A stretch of DNA of 64,000 nucleotides from Escherichia phage ELT1: sequence record MZ892903.1; one strand, written 5' to 3'. Of the stretch, positions 18,141 to 64,000 are shown piece by piece (position 1 is the first letter of the stretch; the number at the start of each line of letters is the position of its first letter). The position numbers were made by a program, and so were the translations under genes. The notes below the pieces were generated by a model. It was not told the DNA's origin, made no database searches, and saw nothing but the letters and a program-made list of their open reading frames with translations.

Positions 18141-18162
18141 GGGACCGAAAGGTCCCTTTTTT
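18141..18162. terminator. bidirectional terminator between convergent genes 24 and rnlB
   Basis: gggacc-gaaa-ggtccc with A-run 5' and T-run 3'. Confidence 0.7.
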
Positions 18163-18164
18163 AT

Positions 18165-19169
18165 TTAACTTACCAATTCAATCCAAGTCGGACGAAGTAC
18201 ATCTTGTACCATTTTAACTAATTCCTTTTTAATCAAAGAAGGATTATCCGCTTGAGTTAAAGTAATACCTTCACGAGAAGTTTCTTCCAAAATATCTTGA
18301 ACAGTTAGTCCCATCACCTTTCCAAAATCTTTTGGACCAATTTCGCCAATTTTAGAAATAACGTTATTTACTCGGTTCAGTGTAACGTAACAAGCTAAAA
18401 TTCCCAGCAATTTATTATCAGCTTCTGACAGTTCAACTTTAGCTTTAATAGGCTTATCAGACTTTTTCTTTTCGCTAAATTTAGAGTTCTTGCATTTAAT
18501 CGCTACACGATTGCCATTAGGCATCCAAAAAGGATAACAAGGTTTCAATACATATCCTTCAGCAGTAAATACTTCGCCTTTTGCTTCGGCATTCCAAACG
18601 CATTTATTTGCATCAACTAATCCAGCGTGGTCTACCGTAAAATTATAATCCTGGACGACAGAATCTAAATCATTTGGCAATTTAATAAGTTCTTCAAATT
18701 TACCACGACCCAAAAGTGGAGCCATTTTAAATTTGAATGTATTACAGAATGATTCCATCATATAATCATCGACATAAGTCACATCACCACTTTCTGTAGT
18801 AACAATAATGTCAAATACATAAAAATCTTTATCACCATAATCAACATTCTTCTGAATGCCAGGTCCAGCGAATTCGCCGAAGACTTGATAAGATACAACT
18901 GCCGAAGTTTCCATAATATCTTGTACTGCTTTAATGGAATCAGCGTAATTCTTCAAAATAATTTCATACCCAAAGAAATCTTCAGCAGGAAGAATCGGTC
19001 CAGTACGTTTAGCACAAGTTGCTTTATCGCGTTCAATAATCAGTGAGAAATTTGTGCCATGAATCTTTTCACGAGCTACCCATTCGCCGCCAGTCAATCC
19101 TAAACTGTAAAGTTTTTCAATGAATTTAGAATTGTAATGATTTTCAAGACTGCTATACTTTTTAAACAT
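18165..19169 (-). CDS. rnlB: RNA ligase 2
   Basis: 334 aa, nucleotidyltransferase lysine motif KIHGTN. Confidence 0.9.
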
Positions 19170-32273: not shown

Positions 32274-32277
32274 CAAT

Positions 32278-32307
32278 GGGGACCGAAAGGTCCCCATATT
32301 TTTATTT
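32278..32307. terminator. bidirectional terminator between gene 54 and the convergent minus-strand 96-aa ORF
   Basis: ggggacc-gaaa-ggtcccc hairpin plus T-run. Confidence 0.7.
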
Positions 32308-32592
32308 ACGGAATGAAATAAAAGCAGCAACTGAAGCAACTAAACTGTCTTCAATATAAACTTCAATTTTTACCGGAGCTTCTGACTCAAATTTACCTGT
32401 TACTACACCCTGAAAAATAATTTCAGTCTGTTCTGGCTTTGAAAAATTTTCAGAAGGAAAAATTCCGAACTTTTTATCTGTTCCAAAAATTTTAATAAAT
32501 TCATCGTAAACCGCTTCGTTAAAAGCATTATCAGCAGGAATAACGCCTTCAACTACAAGTTCTTGACCTAAAAAGCGTAAAGAAGATTTCAT
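32302..32592 (-). CDS. hypothetical protein (region corresponding to T4 alt.-x ORFs)
   Basis: 96-aa ORF with GAGGA SD supplied by the 54-bp repeat. Confidence 0.6.
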   Translation of the reverse strand: MKSSLRFLGQELVVEGVIPADNAFNEAVYDEFIKIFGTDKKFGIFPSENFSKPEQTEIIFQGVVTGKFESEAPVKIEVYIEDSLVASVAAFISFRK

Positions 32593-32599
32593 TTTGTGT

Positions 32600-32653
32600 T
32601 CCTCATGTTATGTCAGTAAGTCTACTATAACACAACACGAGGGACTTGTAAAC
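32600..32653 (-). repeat. 54-bp perfect direct repeat, copy A (early promoter + leader + SD cassette)
   Basis: Identical to 46418-46471; on minus strand reads GTTTAC-18 bp-TATAGT ... GAGGA. Confidence 0.9.
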
Positions 32654-33010
32654 TACATTTTGAACTTTTTAGTACGCGTAATAGGCATGCGTCGATTTTA
32701 TACTGTTTCATTGTTTGAAGAGCAGTATCAAAAACAGCATTAATGACACCAATTGGATTTCCACCCAAGTTTTTAAGTTTAACTAATGATAGTTTCTCAT
32801 TAACACCTATCATTACGATATGCATCATTTTATCGCCTGGCTTAACGTTTTATCTGTATCATCGCCAGAGGTGTATGTACAAAATCTAAATCCAGGAAGC
32901 ACGCTTTCTTCGCCGGCTTGAATAGCAAAAATTTGTGGTATTTTATGCTTAGGATTTAAGTTAACAACCGGCGCCGAAGCGCCGTCAAATAATTATGTAA
33001 TAAGTTCCAT
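32625..33010 (-). pseudogene. decayed tandem duplicate of the alt 5' region (alt N-terminal paralog remnant)
   Basis: Starts 3 nt after alt stop with ATGGAACTTATTACATAA (MELIT-stop; alt has MMELITELFD); DNA and protein similarity to alt codons 1 to about 117 with a frameshift; includes the 67-aa ORF 32625-32828, which matches alt residues 64 onward. Confidence 0.75.
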
Positions 33011-33013
33011 GAT

Positions 33014-35110
33014 TTATCCTTGAACGAACTTGTAAGGCATGTTTGCAATATCTATGCAAGATGCAATAATTCCAAGAGATGATTCTACTTTTTGTTTAAC
33101 ATTTGATGAAACAAATGATGCAAAGTCAACTCTGTCTTCTATTTCAATATCACCTGTCATTGCAACTACTTCACCAGTTTCCATTAGACGGTCACCGTCA
33201 TAAATGACTGATTCGGTGAGTTCTTCCGTAGTCATAACTTCAGCTTGAATGAGTTTTGTATTATTAGATGTTGTTCCGTCATTATTAGAAGCATCAGTTA
33301 TTTTATTAACTTTGACCATCAATCCACGTGGTAGAATAACTTCAGCTTCTGTTGCTATTCCGAGACTTCCTGGATATACAACATTAACTTTATGAGCTCC
33401 ATCAATTGCCCATCCTATTTGAACTTTAACGTATTCAGGATTTTCTTTATACGCTCTTATTTCGTTTGGATTAATAGTTATTCCTTCTTCATTTTTATCA
33501 ACTGTCAATTCATTACGAGCTTCTGGTTCTAAAAGACCGATACCAGCATGTGTAATTCCAAAACGTCCAAAAATGATAGGAGTTAAAGAAGTAGATACAA
33601 AATTTCTGAAATAGAACACTTTATTTTTAACTAGCGCTTCGTATATAGGAGCAGTCATACTTTGAGCACGATAAACTGTAATGCCTTCTGGTATACGGTC
33701 ACCATTTTCAAAAGCTGAATCTAAATTATTTATCGCAGATTCAATTTCTTTTTCACTCATTACATCATATCGTGCTGGATTGTAGCGGCCTAAAAGAAGA
33801 TTATTGATGTCAGTATATCCTGAACCGCAATATTCTCTAATGCCACGCTTTTGTGATGGAGTATATTTAGAACCATCGCGGGCAATAGTAATATCAATCA
33901 TTGGACCAGCACCAATTCCAGAAAAGCTATAAATCATTCGTTTGAGGAATTTAGTTTTTGCTGCATTCCAGGCATTTTTAGTTATTTCTCCCCAGACTTC
34001 ATCTGATTGCCCTTTACGAGTTTTATTATGTTTATCAAGCCAAGTATCTTTATATTCTTCAAAGAATTTATTAATAGCTGCTGCATACTTCTCTAAACAT
34101 TTTATTGAAGTAGTTGGTTCATTTTTAATCGCATTAAGAATTACATCTTTAATTTTTTCAGAAACTTCACCAACCTCACTCATTGGAAAGAATTTATAGT
34201 CATAATGAAGTTCATCTGCAGTTCCTTCAGCAATAATTTTTGCTGCCTTAGTTTTAGAAGCTAATGAATTAATTCCAAGCTTCATTTCTTCTGCTTCGGG
34301 AATTAAAGGAGCTGTAGCAGGTTTATTGAAATTAGCTGCGGTAGATTCATATTTCTGGAATAATTCGCTTTCATTACGATAAGATTCTAACGATTGACTT
34401 GCCGCAATTGCTCTACGTGAAATTTTAACTTTAACGATTACAGCTTGGTCAGAACGTTTATCATTTTCTTGCGCAATAGATGCTGCAATTGCCTCATTTT
34501 TAGTTACTTGAGCTCCAGTATCTTTATTGATATAAACATCACCGACCTTCGATTCAACCTTAGTAAAGAGCTCGGTACTAATTTCCGGAACTCCTGGAAT
34601 GTCTTCTAGTGATACATTTTTGCGATGTATAAGAATATATGCATACTTTTTATCATAATCCCAGAGTTCCTTAAGAAGGACGTATCTGCCACCTGAACGA
34701 CTACGGATAAGTCTATCAGCAATAACTTGAATTTGTCGAGCTTGACCAGCGGTTTTAGACTTAAGAATACGAAGCATACAAGCATCAATTTTATACTGAC
34801 GCATCGTTTGCATTGCAACAGTAAAAACCGAATTGATATAATTAATTGGGCTTGGACCAAGACCTTTCAATTTAGCAATTGAACCTTTAGCGGTTAATGT
34901 AAAAGGAACAATATGCATCATTTTATCGCCCATCTTTAAATCACGATTAGTATCACCTCCAGATGTATAGGTACATAAACGAAAGCCCGGTTGTTCAATT
35001 GCATCATCAACATGAACTGAAAAAATTTGCGGTATTTTCTTCTTTGGATTTAAGTTTGTAATTGGAAGAGTAGTATCTTCGTCAAATAATTCTGTAATTA
35101 GTTCCATCAT
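33014..35110 (-). CDS. alt: ADP-ribosyltransferase Alt (packaged internal head protein)
   Basis: 698 aa, T4 Alt-like, late promoter immediately upstream. Confidence 0.85.
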   Translation of the reverse strand: MMELITELFDEDTTLPITNLNPKKKIPQIFSVHVDDAIEQPGFRLCTYTSGGDTNRDLKMGDKMMHIVPFTLTAKGSIAKLKGLGPSPINYINSVFTVAMQTMRQYKIDACMLRILKSKTAGQARQIQVIADRLIRSRSGGRYVLLKELWDYDKKYAYILIHRKNVSLEDIPGVPEISTELFTKVESKVGDVYINKDTGAQVTKNEAIAASIAQENDKRSDQAVIVKVKISRRAIAASQSLESYRNESELFQKYESTAANFNKPATAPLIPEAEEMKLGINSLASKTKAAKIIAEGTADELHYDYKFFPMSEVGEVSEKIKDVILNAIKNEPTTSIKCLEKYAAAINKFFEEYKDTWLDKHNKTRKGQSDEVWGEITKNAWNAAKTKFLKRMIYSFSGIGAGPMIDITIARDGSKYTPSQKRGIREYCGSGYTDINNLLLGRYNPARYDVMSEKEIESAINNLDSAFENGDRIPEGITVYRAQSMTAPIYEALVKNKVFYFRNFVSTSLTPIIFGRFGITHAGIGLLEPEARNELTVDKNEEGITINPNEIRAYKENPEYVKVQIGWAIDGAHKVNVVYPGSLGIATEAEVILPRGLMVKVNKITDASNNDGTTSNNTKLIQAEVMTTEELTESVIYDGDRLMETGEVVAMTGDIEIEDRVDFASFVSSNVKQKVESSLGIIASCIDIANMPYKFVQG

Positions 35111-45566: not shown

Positions 45567-45916
45567 TTAGAAAGGTCCTGGATGTCTTCTGCGAACTTGT
45601 TGAAGGAGTTGTTGATTTGTTTTTCAACCAATCCTGGCTTATGAGCCACCACATCCGCCTTCTTTGCGTCTTTGCGCAGTTTTTCATTTTCACGCTCAAT
45701 AGCAGCAATTGCCTCACGATTTTTATTATTCATCGCATCAATATAATTATACTGAATTCGCAAATTATTTAATGCTAAGGCGTTTTCATTGGACGTTTTT
45801 GTAATTTCTACAACAGACGTTTCTAATCTTTCTACCTTATTTTTTAAAATAATAGATGTTCCGCCAAATGCTATTACAAGTAATAGCAATCCAGCTGTAA
45901 AATTACTTACATGCAT
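45563..45916 (-). CDS. pseT.3: inner-membrane spanin (i-spanin)
   Basis: 117 aa, N-terminal transmembrane helix then charged helical region. Confidence 0.7.
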   Translation of the reverse strand: MHVSNFTAGLLLLVIAFGGTSIILKNKVERLETSVVEITKTSNENALALNNLRIQYNYIDAMNNKNREAIAAIERENEKLRKDAKKADVVAHKPGLVEKQINNSFNKFAEDIQDLSK

Positions 45917-46413
45917 AAAGTTTTAATAACCTCTACAATATCGTCTTGAGAAAGACCGTTAATTAAAATATGATGTTCAGCTGGAGATTTAGAAATTTTA
46001 AAGCATGCCTCAACATCTTCTGCCATATCCGATGCACTACGATTTGGATTACTAACCCCAAGGCGGTGTTTTCCAGTCAAAGGATTAACGATGATGTAGC
46101 ATTTGCAATTATTGATATGAACATTAGGTTGAGTCTGATTAATGAACACTTCACAATCATATTTCGCAAGCTGATTTTCTAAAAAGACTTTCATCTCTTC
46201 AACCGCATCAGGAAGCATATCACGGGCTTGCTCAAGACGACGATTTCGATATTCTTTAATGGTCGTTTTCCGCTTGACTTGCTTTGCTAAATCTTTCTTA
46301 AGATCGGTGATATATCCAACTCGACGATTTCCTTTGAATACAGAAATCCCATCTGTAGTATCACCGTATGCTTCAACGACCATTTCAGTAGTAATAAGTT
46401 GTAAATCCATCAT
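45907..46413 (-). CDS. alc: transcription blocker of cytosine-containing DNA, Alc
   Basis: 168 aa, position between rnlA and spanins. Confidence 0.75.
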   Translation of the reverse strand: MMDLQLITTEMVVEAYGDTTDGISVFKGNRRVGYITDLKKDLAKQVKRKTTIKEYRNRRLEQARDMLPDAVEEMKVFLENQLAKYDCEVFINQTQPNVHINNCKCYIIVNPLTGKHRLGVSNPNRSASDMAEDVEACFKISKSPAEHHILINGLSQDDIVEVIKTLCM

Positions 46414-46417
46414 AAAG

Positions 46418-46471
46418 TCCTCATGTTATGTCAGTAAGTCTACTATAACACAACACGAGGGACTTGTAAAC
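46418..46471 (-). repeat. 54-bp perfect direct repeat, copy B (early promoter + leader + SD cassette upstream of alc)
   Basis: Identical to 32600-32653. Confidence 0.9.
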
Positions 46472-46474
46472 AGC

Positions 46475-48062
<1,588 letters not shown>

Positions 48063-61435: not shown

Positions 61436-64000
61436 ATGGCCGAGATTAAAAGAAAGTTCAGAGCAGAAGATGGTCTGGACGCAGGTGGCGATAAAATAAT
61501 CAACGTAGCTTTAGCTGATCGTGCCGTAGGAACTGACGGTGTTAACGTTGATTACCTAATTCAAGAAAACACAGTTCAACAATATGATCCAACTCGTGGA
61601 TATTTAAAAGATTTTGTAATCATTTATGATAACCGCTTTTGGGCTGCTATAAATGATATTCCAAAACCGGCAGGAGCTTTTAATAGCGTGCGCTGGAGAG
61701 CATTACGTACTGATGCAAACTGGACAACTGTTTCGTCAGGACCTTATCAATTAAAGTCAGGTGAATCAATTTCAGTTAATACTGCAGCAGGAAATGATAT
61801 CACATTTACTTTGCCAACTTCTCCAATTGATGGAGATACTATCGTTCTTCAAGATATTGGTGGAAAACCTGGAGTTAACCAAGTTTTAATTGTAGCTCCA
61901 GTGCAAAGTATTGTAAACTTTAGAGGCGAACAAGTACGATCAGTACTAATGACCCATCCAAAATCACAGATAGTTTTAATTTTTAGTAATCGTCTGTGGC
62001 AAATGTATGTGGCTGATTATAGCAGAGAAGCGGTAGTTGTGACGCCAGCAAGTCTCTACCAGGCGCAGTCAAACGATTTTATCGTACGCAGATTTACTTC
62101 TGCTGCACCGATAAATATTAAACTTCCGAGATTTGCTAATCATGGCGATATTATTAATTTCGTTGATTTAGATAAATTAAATCCTCTTTATCATACAATT
62201 GTTACTACATATGATGAAACTACATCAGTACAAGAAGATGGAACTCATTCCATTGAAGGCCGTACATCTATTGATGGTTTCTTGATGTATGATGATAATG
62301 AGAAATTATGGAGATTATTTGACGGGGATAGTAAAGCACGTTTACGCGTTATAACAACTAATTCTAATATTCGTCCAAACGAAGAAGTTATGGTATTTGG
62401 TGCGAATAATGGAACAACTCAAACAATTGAACTTCAGCTTCCGACCGATATTTCCATTGGCGATACTGTTAAAATTTCCATGAATTACATGAGAAAAGGC
62501 CAAACAGTTAAAATCAAAGCTGCCGGTGAAGATAAAATTGCTTCTTCAGTTCAATTGCTGCAATTCCCAAAACGTTCAGAATATCCACCTGAAGCTGAAT
62601 GGGTGACTGTTCAAGAATTAGTTTTTAACGGTGAAACTAATTATGTTCCAGTTTTACAACTTGCTTATATCGAAGATTCTGACGGAAAATACTGGGTTGT
62701 ACAGCAAAACGTTCCAACAGTTGAAAGAGTCGATTCTTTAAATAATTCTACTAGAGCAAGATTAGGCGTAATTGCTTTAGCTACACAAGCTCAAGCTAAC
62801 GTCGATTTAGAAAATTCTCCACAAAAAGAATTGGCAATTACTCCAGAAACGTTAGCTAACCGTACTGCTACAGAAACTCGTAGAGGTATTGCAAGAATAG
62901 CAACCACTGCTCAAGTGAACCAGGACACTACATTCTCTTTTGCTGATGATATTATCATCACTCCTAAAAAGCTGAATGAAAGAACTGCTACAGAAACTCG
63001 TAGAGGTGTTGCTGAAATTGCTACACAGCAAGAAACTAACGCAGGTACTGATGATGCTACAATCATCACTCCTAAAAAGCTTCAAGCTCGTCAAGGTTCT
63101 GAATCATTATCTGGTATTGTAACCTTTGTATCTACCGCAGGAGCTACTCCAGCTTCTAGTCGTGAATTAAATGGTACGAATGTTTATAATAAAAACACTG
63201 ATAATTTAGTTGTTTCACCTAAAGCTTTGGATCAGTATAAAGCTACTCCAACACAACAAGGTGCGGTAATTTTAGCAGTTGAAAGTGAAGTAATTGCTGG
63301 ACAGAGCCAAGAAGGATGGGCAAATGCGGTTGTAACGCCAGAAACGTTACATAAAAAGACATCAACTGATGCAAGAATTGGTTTAATTGAAATTGCTACG
63401 CAAAGTGAAGTTAATACAGGAACTGATTATACCCGTGCAGTCACTCCTAAAACTTTAAATGACCGTAAAGCAACTGAAAGTTTAAGTGGTATAGCTGAAA
63501 TTGCTACGCAAGTTGAATTCGACGCAGGCGTCGACGATACTCGTATCTCTACACCATTAAAAATTAAAACCAGATTTAACAGTACTGATCGTACTTCTGT
63601 TGTTGCTCTATCTGGATTAGTTGAATCAGGAACTCTCTGGGACCATTATACCCTTAATATTCTTGAAGCAAATGAGACACAACGTGGTACACTTCGTGTA
63701 GCTACGCAAGTTGAAGCTGCTGCAGGAACATTAGATAATGTTCTAATAACTCCTAAAAAGCTTTTAGGTACTAAATCTACTGAAGCGCAGGAAGGCGTTA
63801 TTAAAGTTGCAACTCAGTCTGAAACTGTAACTGGAACGTCAGCAAATACTGCTGTATCTCCAAAAAATTTAAAATGGATTGTGCAGAGTGAACCTACCTG
63901 GGCAGCTACTACTGCAATAAGAGGTTTTGTTAAAACTTCATCTGGTTCAATTACATTCGTTGGTAATGATACAGTCGGTTCTACCCAAGATTTAGAACTG
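61436..64000 (+). CDS. 34: long tail fiber proximal subunit gp34 (5' partial, runs off window end)
   Basis: Open frame from ATG 61436 (AGGAG SD) with no stop to window end; begins MAEIKRKFRAEDGLDAGGDKIINVALADRAVGTDGVNVDY; internal repeated ...TATETRRG... motifs. Confidence 0.9.
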   Translation, partial: MAEIKRKFRAEDGLDAGGDKIINVALADRAVGTDGVNVDYLIQENTVQQYDPTRGYLKDFVIIYDNRFWAAINDIPKPAGAFNSVRWRALRTDANWTTVSSGPYQLKSGESISVNTAAGNDITFTLPTSPIDGDTIVLQDIGGKPGVNQVLIVAPVQSIVNFRGEQVRSVLMTHPKSQIVLIFSNRLWQMYVADYSREAVVVTPASLYQAQSNDFIVRRFTSAAPINIKLPRFANHGDIINFVDLDKLNPLYHTIVTTYDETTSVQEDGTHSIEGRTSIDGFLMYDDNEKLWRLFDGDSKARLRVITTNSNIRPNEEVMVFGANNGTTQTIELQLPTDISIGDTVKISMNYMRKGQTVKIKAAGEDKIASSVQLLQFPKRSEYPPEAEWVTVQELVFNGETNYVPVLQLAYIEDSDGKYWVVQQNVPTVERVDSLNNSTRARLGVIALATQAQANVDLENSPQKELAITPETLANRTATETRRGIARIATTAQVNQDTTFSFADDIIITPKKLNERTATETRRGVAEIATQQETNAGTDDATIITPKKLQARQGSESLSGIVTFVSTAGATPASSRELNGTNVYNKNTDNLVVSPKALDQYKATPTQQGAVILAVESEVIAGQSQEGWANAVVTPETLHKKTSTDARIGLIEIATQSEVNTGTDYTRAVTPKTLNDRKATESLSGIAEIATQVEFDAGVDDTRISTPLKIKTRFNSTDRTSVVALSGLVESGTLWDHYTLNILEANETQRGTLRVATQVEAAAGTLDNVLITPKKLLGTKSTEAQEGVIKVATQSETVTGTSANTAVSPKNLKWIVQSEPTWAATTAIRGFVKTSSGSITFVGNDTVGSTQDLEL

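Follow-up and report, generated by a model that had tools for sequence, protein, structure and literature searches.

The DNA analyzed here, referred to as the window, is a stretch of 64,000 nucleotides from Escherichia phage ELT1 (MZ892903.1), a Tequatrovirus of the T4 group, and its gene order is that of T4. A 54-bp cassette is present in it twice: copy A lies between the alt.-2 remnant and alt.-3, adjoining the baseplate gene 54, and copy B separates rnlA from alc. Hundreds of Tequatrovirus phages match the surroundings of both copies at 95–98% identity, with JEP6 and SG1 as the nearest relatives and no identical record for these regions. The features at the two loci are as follows.

32276..32297, both strands: bidirectional terminator-like hairpin (9-bp stem, 6 GC pairs) between gene 54 (plus strand) and alt.-3 (minus strand)
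32302..32592, minus strand: alt.-3, a 96-aa ORF (DUF5498; T4 annotation), with its ATG 7 nt past the GAGGA of copy A
32600..32653, minus strand: cassette copy A, 54 bp, with −35 TTTACA at 32652–32647, TG at 32632–32631, −10 TATAGT at 32629–32624 and Shine–Dalgarno (SD) GAGGA at 32604–32600
32625..32828, minus strand: alt.-2 remnant, a 67-aa ORF, fragment of a second Alt paralog (phrog_802, Alt-like ADP-ribosyltransferase, residues 64–120)
45907..46413, minus strand: alc, host transcription inhibitor, first gene of the alc-pseT early transcription unit
46418..46471, minus strand: cassette copy B, 54 bp, with −35 TTTACA at 46470–46465, −10 TATAGT at 46447–46442 and SD GAGGA at 46422–46418
46475..47635, minus strand: rnlA, RNA ligase 1, ORF as listed from a GTG (the T4 gene has 1125 bp)

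The minus-strand 54-mer, GTTTACAAGTCCCTCGTGTTGTGTTATAGTAGACTTACTGACATAACATGAGGA, has exactly two sites in the window, 32600–32653 (A) and 46418–46471 (B). As the original prediction had claimed of a perfect repeat 13.8 kb apart in the same orientation, the copies are identical at 54/54 positions (0 mismatches), lie on the same strand and are spaced by 13,818 bp; the self-comparison of the window that it had proposed as a check returned the pair as the sole long exact dispersed repeat (family D3). The flanks of A and B are unrelated, and the homology ends abruptly at either side, extending in every genome examined from the G of GTTTAC exactly to the A of GAGGA. None of 100 dinucleotide-preserving shuffles contained a match to the 54-mer even with up to three mismatches tolerated, and this, together with the presence of the pair in approximately 499 independent genome records, rules out chance or an artefact as its origin. 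A host origin was likewise ruled out by the lack of a match among 5,426 E. coli genomes.

Each copy occupies essentially the whole intergenic gap, from the upstream stop codon to the SD of the downstream gene. At copy B, the rnlA TAA stop (46477–46475) lies 3 nt upstream of the cassette. At copy A, the alt.-2 remnant of T4-type genomes, including that of the window, terminates within the −10, and most relatives have there a full-length alt.-2 of 2058 bp, with a TAG stop overlapping the cassette at its first G. The downstream genes are those that had been named, the 96-aa ORF (alt.-3) at A and alc at B, and a predicted gap of 4–8 nt to the ATG also agrees with what we found: 7 nt at A, and 4 nt or 7 nt at B, depending on which of two alc start codons is counted. 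The first, in-frame alc ATG stands 4 nt after the GAGGA, while T4 annotates the second (46410), which gives an SD–ATG spacing of 7 nt, matching copy A. The alt.-3 product belongs to PF17602 (E=1.5e-63) and phrog_1739 and has no known function. Because the hairpin at 32276–32297 ends it, copy A and alt.-3 would form a monocistronic unit.

The neighborhood of copy A varies among relatives. Full-length alt.-2 encodes a second Alt-like ADP-ribosyltransferase between alt and copy A (for example, in RB14; L008, 1107–3164), and in T4, JEP6 and the window (32625–33013) only short alt.-1 and alt.-2 remnants are left; the common sequence after this indel resumes 19 nt upstream of the cassette. A 31-nt repeat (family D7; 32983–33013 and 35080–35110, 90% identity) is a duplicated start of alt.

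T4 early promoters are reportedly a described class of their own (Liebig & Ruger 1989; Miller et al. 2003). Our consensus promoter scan placed TTTACA-17-TATAGT with an upstream TG in both copies (10/12 matches), and both carry the extended −10 arrangement TTTACA-17-TG-T-TATAGT, which fits TGn plus TAnnnT. The promoter, leader and SD anatomy had thus been read correctly in the original prediction, whose "GTTTAC plus an 18-bp spacer" is the same site in another register. The pair resembles the T4 early promoters of the σ70 "UP/−35/TGn/−10" type (Hinton 2010, PMC2988021) in its GTTTAC(A), its 17-bp spacer, its TGn and TAnnnT and its position directly 5′ of early genes. The A/T-rich UP-like regions of the pair are outside the repeat and differ between the copies: A has AAAA at −44 to −41 and AAAAA further up, and B has ACTAA at −44 to −40 and A-tracts from about −55. 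Since the published T4 early-promoter numbering puts GTTTAC at −36 to −31, transcription would start at cassette position 37, that is, at about 32617 for A and about 46435 for B, to which T4 123057 and 136300 correspond.

The leaders of ~24 nt that would result fold no better than shuffled sequences (z = +0.5 and +1.4), and an Rfam search of the whole window gave no match; these two results rule out both RNA structure and membership of a known RNA family. A published time course of the T4 transcriptome and proteome classes alt.-3 and alc as early at both the RNA and the protein level, and puts alt.-1 and alt.-2, just upstream of copy A, in the middle class. Early expression of alt.-3 downstream of middle genes is what a working early promoter at A predicts. 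A literature search for T4 transcription start site or 5′-end mapping found none for either copy. By its −35, spacer and extended −10, then, the element is a T4 early promoter, and the consensus match and the early expression class suggest that both copies are working ones. As for the SD itself, the cassette ends in GAGGA followed by A or C (32600–32604, 46418–46422), and neither leader has GGAG, the motif at which the T4 endoribonuclease RegB cleaves early SD sequences; the counterpart leaders of the outgroup genomes considered below (L027–L029) mostly have GAGGAG and thus contain GGAG.

Identity beyond what the promoter consensus gives had been claimed, and this holds. Among 15 early-type promoter matches in the window, the A/B pair is 100% identical over 54 nt, the next pair 61%, and the median is 37%. 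T4 early promoters are thus normally alike at the consensus level only (up to 61% over 54 nt in the window), whereas in this pair the identity also takes in spacer, discriminator, leader and SD.

The repeat had been treated as a peculiarity of one genome, and in this respect the original prediction needs correcting, as the pair is genus-wide and present in T4 itself. Sensitive blastn with the 54-mer located it at 997 places, spread over 499 phage records at two per genome, and at no less than 90% identity throughout. This agrees with the ~496–498 records that encode Alc and Alt.-3 at Tequatrovirus level; in records with a more distant alc (640) or alt.-3 (338), the cassette was undetectable. 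In the T4 reference, the pair lies at 123040–123093 and 136283–136336, the two copies differ from each other at one base, and the window cassette is present at these sites with one or two differences. The repeat is accordingly a normal conserved feature of the T4 group, neither an assembly error nor a rearrangement scar. Two of the records, PV654520.1 and one other, are labelled Pseudomonas aeruginosa phages and have the cassette at 98% identity, which points to mislabelled or contaminated entries and no true host jump.

Outside the genus, Mosigvirus (AV118), Dhakavirus (IME341) and Karamvirus (KMB20) have alt.-3 and alc at the same positions, with an early-type promoter in both gaps. Gaprivervirus VR20 has an early-type promoter in the alt.-3 gap; its alc locus, which a partial duplication of alc disturbs, was left unscored. 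Within each of the three scored outgroup genomes, the A and B promoters are 0.72–0.74 identical in gapped comparison, and unrelated early promoters 0.55–0.72. The outgroup promoters at the two loci are thus only loosely alike, which makes the identity specific to the Tequatrovirus lineage. This suggests that the repeat arose in that lineage when one resident promoter was replaced by the other, and the ends of the replaced tract coincide with motifs common to all these cassettes, GTTTACA and ATGAGGA. The alc locus, which at first looked like the donor, did not hold up as such: identities to the cassette are 0.78 for the Dhakavirus alc promoter, 0.75 for Karamvirus alt.-3, 0.73 for Dhakavirus alt.-3 and 0.68 for another, which are too close together, and to the background of 0.58–0.66, for the outgroups to point to a donor locus, and any direction of the replacement would be conjecture.

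To compare the loci in related genomes, a check that the original prediction had also proposed, we used 31 genomes with both copies each: 24 GenBank phages, four from IMG/VR, two metagenome contigs and the window. Scans of IMG/VR and metagenomes with exact and degenerate patterns had given about eight usable genome pairs. The copies are identical in six of the 31 genomes; the other 25 have non-identical copies, the usual difference being 1–3 bases. The loci nevertheless share their variation. There is no fixed difference between A and B in the set, six haplotypes occur at both loci, and nine polymorphic sites are shared with the same alleles, every site that is polymorphic at B being polymorphic also at A. 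Between genomes, paralogs differ on average by 2.55 mismatches, and orthologs by 2.77 (A–A) and 2.04 (B–B). Parallel mutation, as simulated, produced eight or more shared sites with P≤0.002 even when only 25 positions were allowed to mutate.

The two copies of one genome are also more alike than copies taken from different genomes. The distance between A and B is 2.10 within and 2.55 between genomes (permutation p=0.0008), a modest excess similarity of 0.45 mismatch on average, in a set of genomes that are phylogenetically non-independent and were drawn from a list ranked by similarity to the window haplotype; with the window left out against this ascertainment bias, the excess remains (p=0.003). 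The six genomes with identical copies carry five haplotypes, namely the window's own, A29-A32-T33 (G28), T33 (two genomes), A16-T33 (Ac3) and C27-T33 (KIT06), and without the window there are 5/30 identical pairs where 1.9 are expected (p=0.03). At 6/6 sites tested, A and B of a genome have the same allele more often than expected. The singleton C19, for example, is confined to UGKSEcP2, whose two copies both have it, and C27 is found at B in each of the three genomes that have it at A. Divergence of the cassette is uncoupled from that of its flanks (r = −0.12 and 0.20); in genomes with less than 2% flank divergence, it is 2.6–4.6 times higher than in the flanks.

These comparisons support the claim of cassette transfer or gene conversion through the absence of fixed differences, the shared haplotypes and the within-genome excess. 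Our preferred reading, to which we assign a probability of roughly two in three, is that the two copies undergo recurrent short-patch ectopic gene conversion. The rival that has to be weighed most directly against these data is a single ancient replacement or duplication near the root of Tequatrovirus, after which the copies evolved independently and came to share polymorphisms by recurrent mutation or selection at a few free sites, for instance in tuning of the −10. If the event took place near the most recent common ancestor of the genus, zero fixed differences and a paralog distance close to the ortholog distance are expected without conversion. Several of the shared polymorphisms do fall in the −10, at positions 27 and 29, where TATAGT, TACAGT, TATAAT and TACAAT are found; functional toggling is plausible at these positions, and repeated toggling under selection on promoter strength could explain part of the sharing. 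Many four-gamete violations are seen inside the 54 bp, and those between sites 2–3 nt apart are typical of homoplasy; the violations fit recurrent mutation and short-patch repair equally.

What a single event does not predict, however, is that alleles at A and B should co-occur, yet the A/B distance is smaller inside a genome than across genomes (p=0.0008, and 0.003 with the window left out), identical pairs are in excess (5/30 against 1.9; p=0.03), and the excess of co-occurrence extends to all six sites, with C19 in both copies of its one genome and A29-A32-T33 at both G28 loci. Also, a general hypermutability of early promoters is not seen, as two single-copy early promoters are far less variable (see below). 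Gene conversion is preferred because a single ancient event fails to predict the within-genome similarity and the excess of identical pairs, and we regard the single event as unlikely.

The idea that the cassette is unusually conserved did not survive comparison with its surroundings. In 19 genomes, nucleotide diversity (pi) was 0.057 for cassette A and 0.046 for cassette B, with 13–14 haplotypes, as against 0.021 and 0.006, with six and three haplotypes, for two single-copy early promoters of the same interval in the same genomes, and 0.003 for the 40 nt upstream of copy B. The cassette is thus more variable than single-copy early promoters, a difference that is suggestive, with two controls, and the variability fits a shared, reshuffled pool of variants. 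The single-copy early-type promoters (minus strand, G of GTTTAC at window 43492 and 39518) are themselves conserved islands with a flank pi of up to 0.24; the latter is one of two promoter-like sites in tandem, 39553 and 39518, 35 nt apart.

High polymorphism of the cassette argues against strong purifying selection on the whole 54 bp, which bears on a further explanation, namely that the copies are held alike by a shared function, such as a regulator site or a leader RNA that co-regulates alt.-3 and alc. Both genes are early, the 7-nt SD–ATG spacing is kept at both loci, and the homology covers exactly promoter, leader and SD, as such a function would have it. The cassette is, however, a local hotspot of polymorphism (pi 0.046–0.057 against 0.006–0.021 for the single-copy promoters), the leaders are unstructured and belong to no Rfam family, and the outgroup genera express alt.-3 and alc from dissimilar promoters. 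We consider this explanation very improbable.

Conversion as the mechanism is proposed here from sequence comparison, and the course of events could have been as follows. Host σ70 RNA polymerase would recognize TTTACA-17-TGnTATAGT right after DNA injection and would start ~7 nt past the −10, at cassette position 37, producing an unstructured leader of ~24 nt in which GAGGA precedes the ATG by 7 nt. From copy A, alt.-3 alone would be transcribed, up to the hairpin at 32276–32297, and copy B would stand at the head of the alc-pseT early operon. Early promoters would have been present in both gaps before Tequatrovirus and its sister genera diverged. In the Tequatrovirus lineage, one of them would then have replaced the other over the tract between the −35 GTTTACA and the SD ATGAGGA. 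Ectopic gene conversion in short patches would have recurred since, be it inside one genome or among co-infecting phages, such that both loci draw on one haplotype pool. The perfect identity in the window may then represent the state soon after a conversion event.

The original prediction had further seen in the pair a site through which the alt-to-alc interval could be deleted or duplicated. Through reciprocal recombination of the copies (REARRANGEMENT), 13.8 kb would be lost or doubled. Since genes 30 (DNA ligase) and 31 (co-chaperonin), both essential in T4, lie in this interval, its deletion should be lethal. T4 evolution experiments showed that added DNA has to be compensated by losses (Srikant et al. 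2022, PMC9391042), and a gain of 13.8 kb should exceed the headful capacity. Deletion and duplication are therefore probably both lethal. Neither product of the interval was found among the ~499 database genomes, which have two copies in the same arrangement, and an rnlA-cassette-alt.-3 junction was present in no genome. Rearrangement through the pair is thus formally possible and unsupported.

Local duplications were observed at copy B. In G28 (vB_EcoM-G28, NC_054916.1; L018, 16697–17347), a perfect tandem duplication of 300 bp with a spacing of 351 bp spans the rnlA 3′ end, the cassette and the alc N-terminus, creating a third cassette copy, a 63-aa alc fragment ORF and a 33-aa ORF. Mediation of this duplication by the cassette was ruled out, since the third copy lies in mid-duplication and the ends of the duplication lie elsewhere. 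Gaprivervirus VR20 (L030, 14823–15056) has, independently, part of alc duplicated upstream of the gene itself. Local duplications seem to arise easily at the rnlA-alc junction.

The closest known elements to compare with the pair include the promoter-early stem-loop (PeSL) cassettes of T4-type phages, which consist of an early promoter, an SD and a start codon (Arbiol et al. 2010, PMC2839356; Comeau et al. 2014, PMC4122927). The pair agrees with the PST/T4 consensus TTTACW-N17-TAYWAT, both copies run from early promoter through SD to start codon, and the crossovers mapped in PeSLs fall between the −10 and the SD/ATG, the tract that is homogenized here. PeSLs are defined, however, with an upstream stem-loop and an AT-rich region, neither of which the pair shares. 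There is no stem-loop upstream of copy B, and upstream of copy A there is a weak 6-bp stem (32674–32692) that lies in the alt.-2 remnant, outside the repeat, and is absent where alt.-2 is full-length. Also, PeSLs are neighboring cassettes that flank small non-essential ORFs in hyperplastic regions and give rise to indels and mini-circles, whereas this pair is 13.8 kb apart, flanks essential genes and has been homogenized without rearrangement. The indels near the cassettes are the alt.-2 full-length/remnant site adjoining A, with its boundary 19 nt outside, and, at B, only the tandem duplication of G28. The term "gene conversion" does not appear in the text of the 2010 PeSL paper (PMC2839356).

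That the repeat could be the footprint of a mobile PeSL event, in which a mini-circle with a gene and a cassette integrated at one of the loci, is suggested by the documented recombination of such cassettes to mini-circles in T4-type phages, including the PST/T4 pair, and by the alt.-2 polymorphism next to copy A. Against it, alt.-3 and alc, with their own promoters, occupy the same positions in four other genera, so that neither gene came with the cassette; only 54 bp are shared and no coding sequence; and the stem-loop as well as the alt.-2 indel boundary, 19 nt upstream, lie outside the repeat. We give this origin very little credence.

Gene conversion between the copies, which we prefer, also has to be set beside what is known of recombination at short homologies. 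T4 recombines at microhomologies of 2–10 bp, far below 54 bp (Srikant et al. 2022, PMC9391042, citing Kumagai 1993, Wu 1991 and Wu 2021). Those studies concerned selected amplifications and deletions, whereas the pair has undergone no rearrangement and its non-reciprocal exchange is deduced from comparison. In ectopic gene conversion of dispersed paralogs, such as bacterial rRNA operons, shared polymorphisms and haplotypes, the absence of fixed differences and a within-genome excess are likewise found. Unlike in such paralogs, the tract here is 54 bp long and non-coding, homogenization is weak, with most genomes differing at 1–3 sites, and exchange seems to increase the diversity of haplotypes instead of suppressing it. 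A literature search for concerted evolution of T4 promoters, with the older T4 promoter compilations outside its range, found no description. That two dispersed 54-bp copies would evolve in concert is a modestly new point, the class of element itself being ordinary and known.

Carried further, and only tentatively, since we think it rather doubtful, the pair might constitute a two-locus allele-exchange system near the lower homology limit of T4 recombination, in which frequent short-patch conversion, also among co-infecting phages, both homogenizes and reshuffles variants and strength-altering −10 alleles (TATAGT, TACAGT, TATAAT, TACAAT) are traded between alc and alt.-3. If so, allele exchange would explain the 2–10-fold diversity and the 2–4-fold number of haplotypes of the duplicated over the single-copy early promoters, the pair would be a natural reporter of minimal-homology ectopic recombination in T4 that needs no selectable marker, and there would be a hint that Alt.-3 (DUF5498) is dosed together with Alc in the takeover of host transcription. 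The pair offers a clean natural example of non-coding viral paralogs of 54 bp, 14–15 kb apart, with population-genetic signs of gene conversion, and it extends the PeSL idea of a "regulatory cassette" from gene shuffling to promoter homogenization. Practical consequences for phage biology would be small unless the link between alt.-3 and alc expression is functional.

Other repeats in the window are of different kinds. The hairpin at 32276–32297 has a common core, GGGACCGAAAGGTCCC, with another at 18141–18165 (repeat family D17). Degenerate direct repeats of 68 nt and 33 nt with 66–88% identity (families D1 and D2) lie within a coding region at 62837–63762 and probably reflect a repeated peptide motif of a structural, fibre-like protein.
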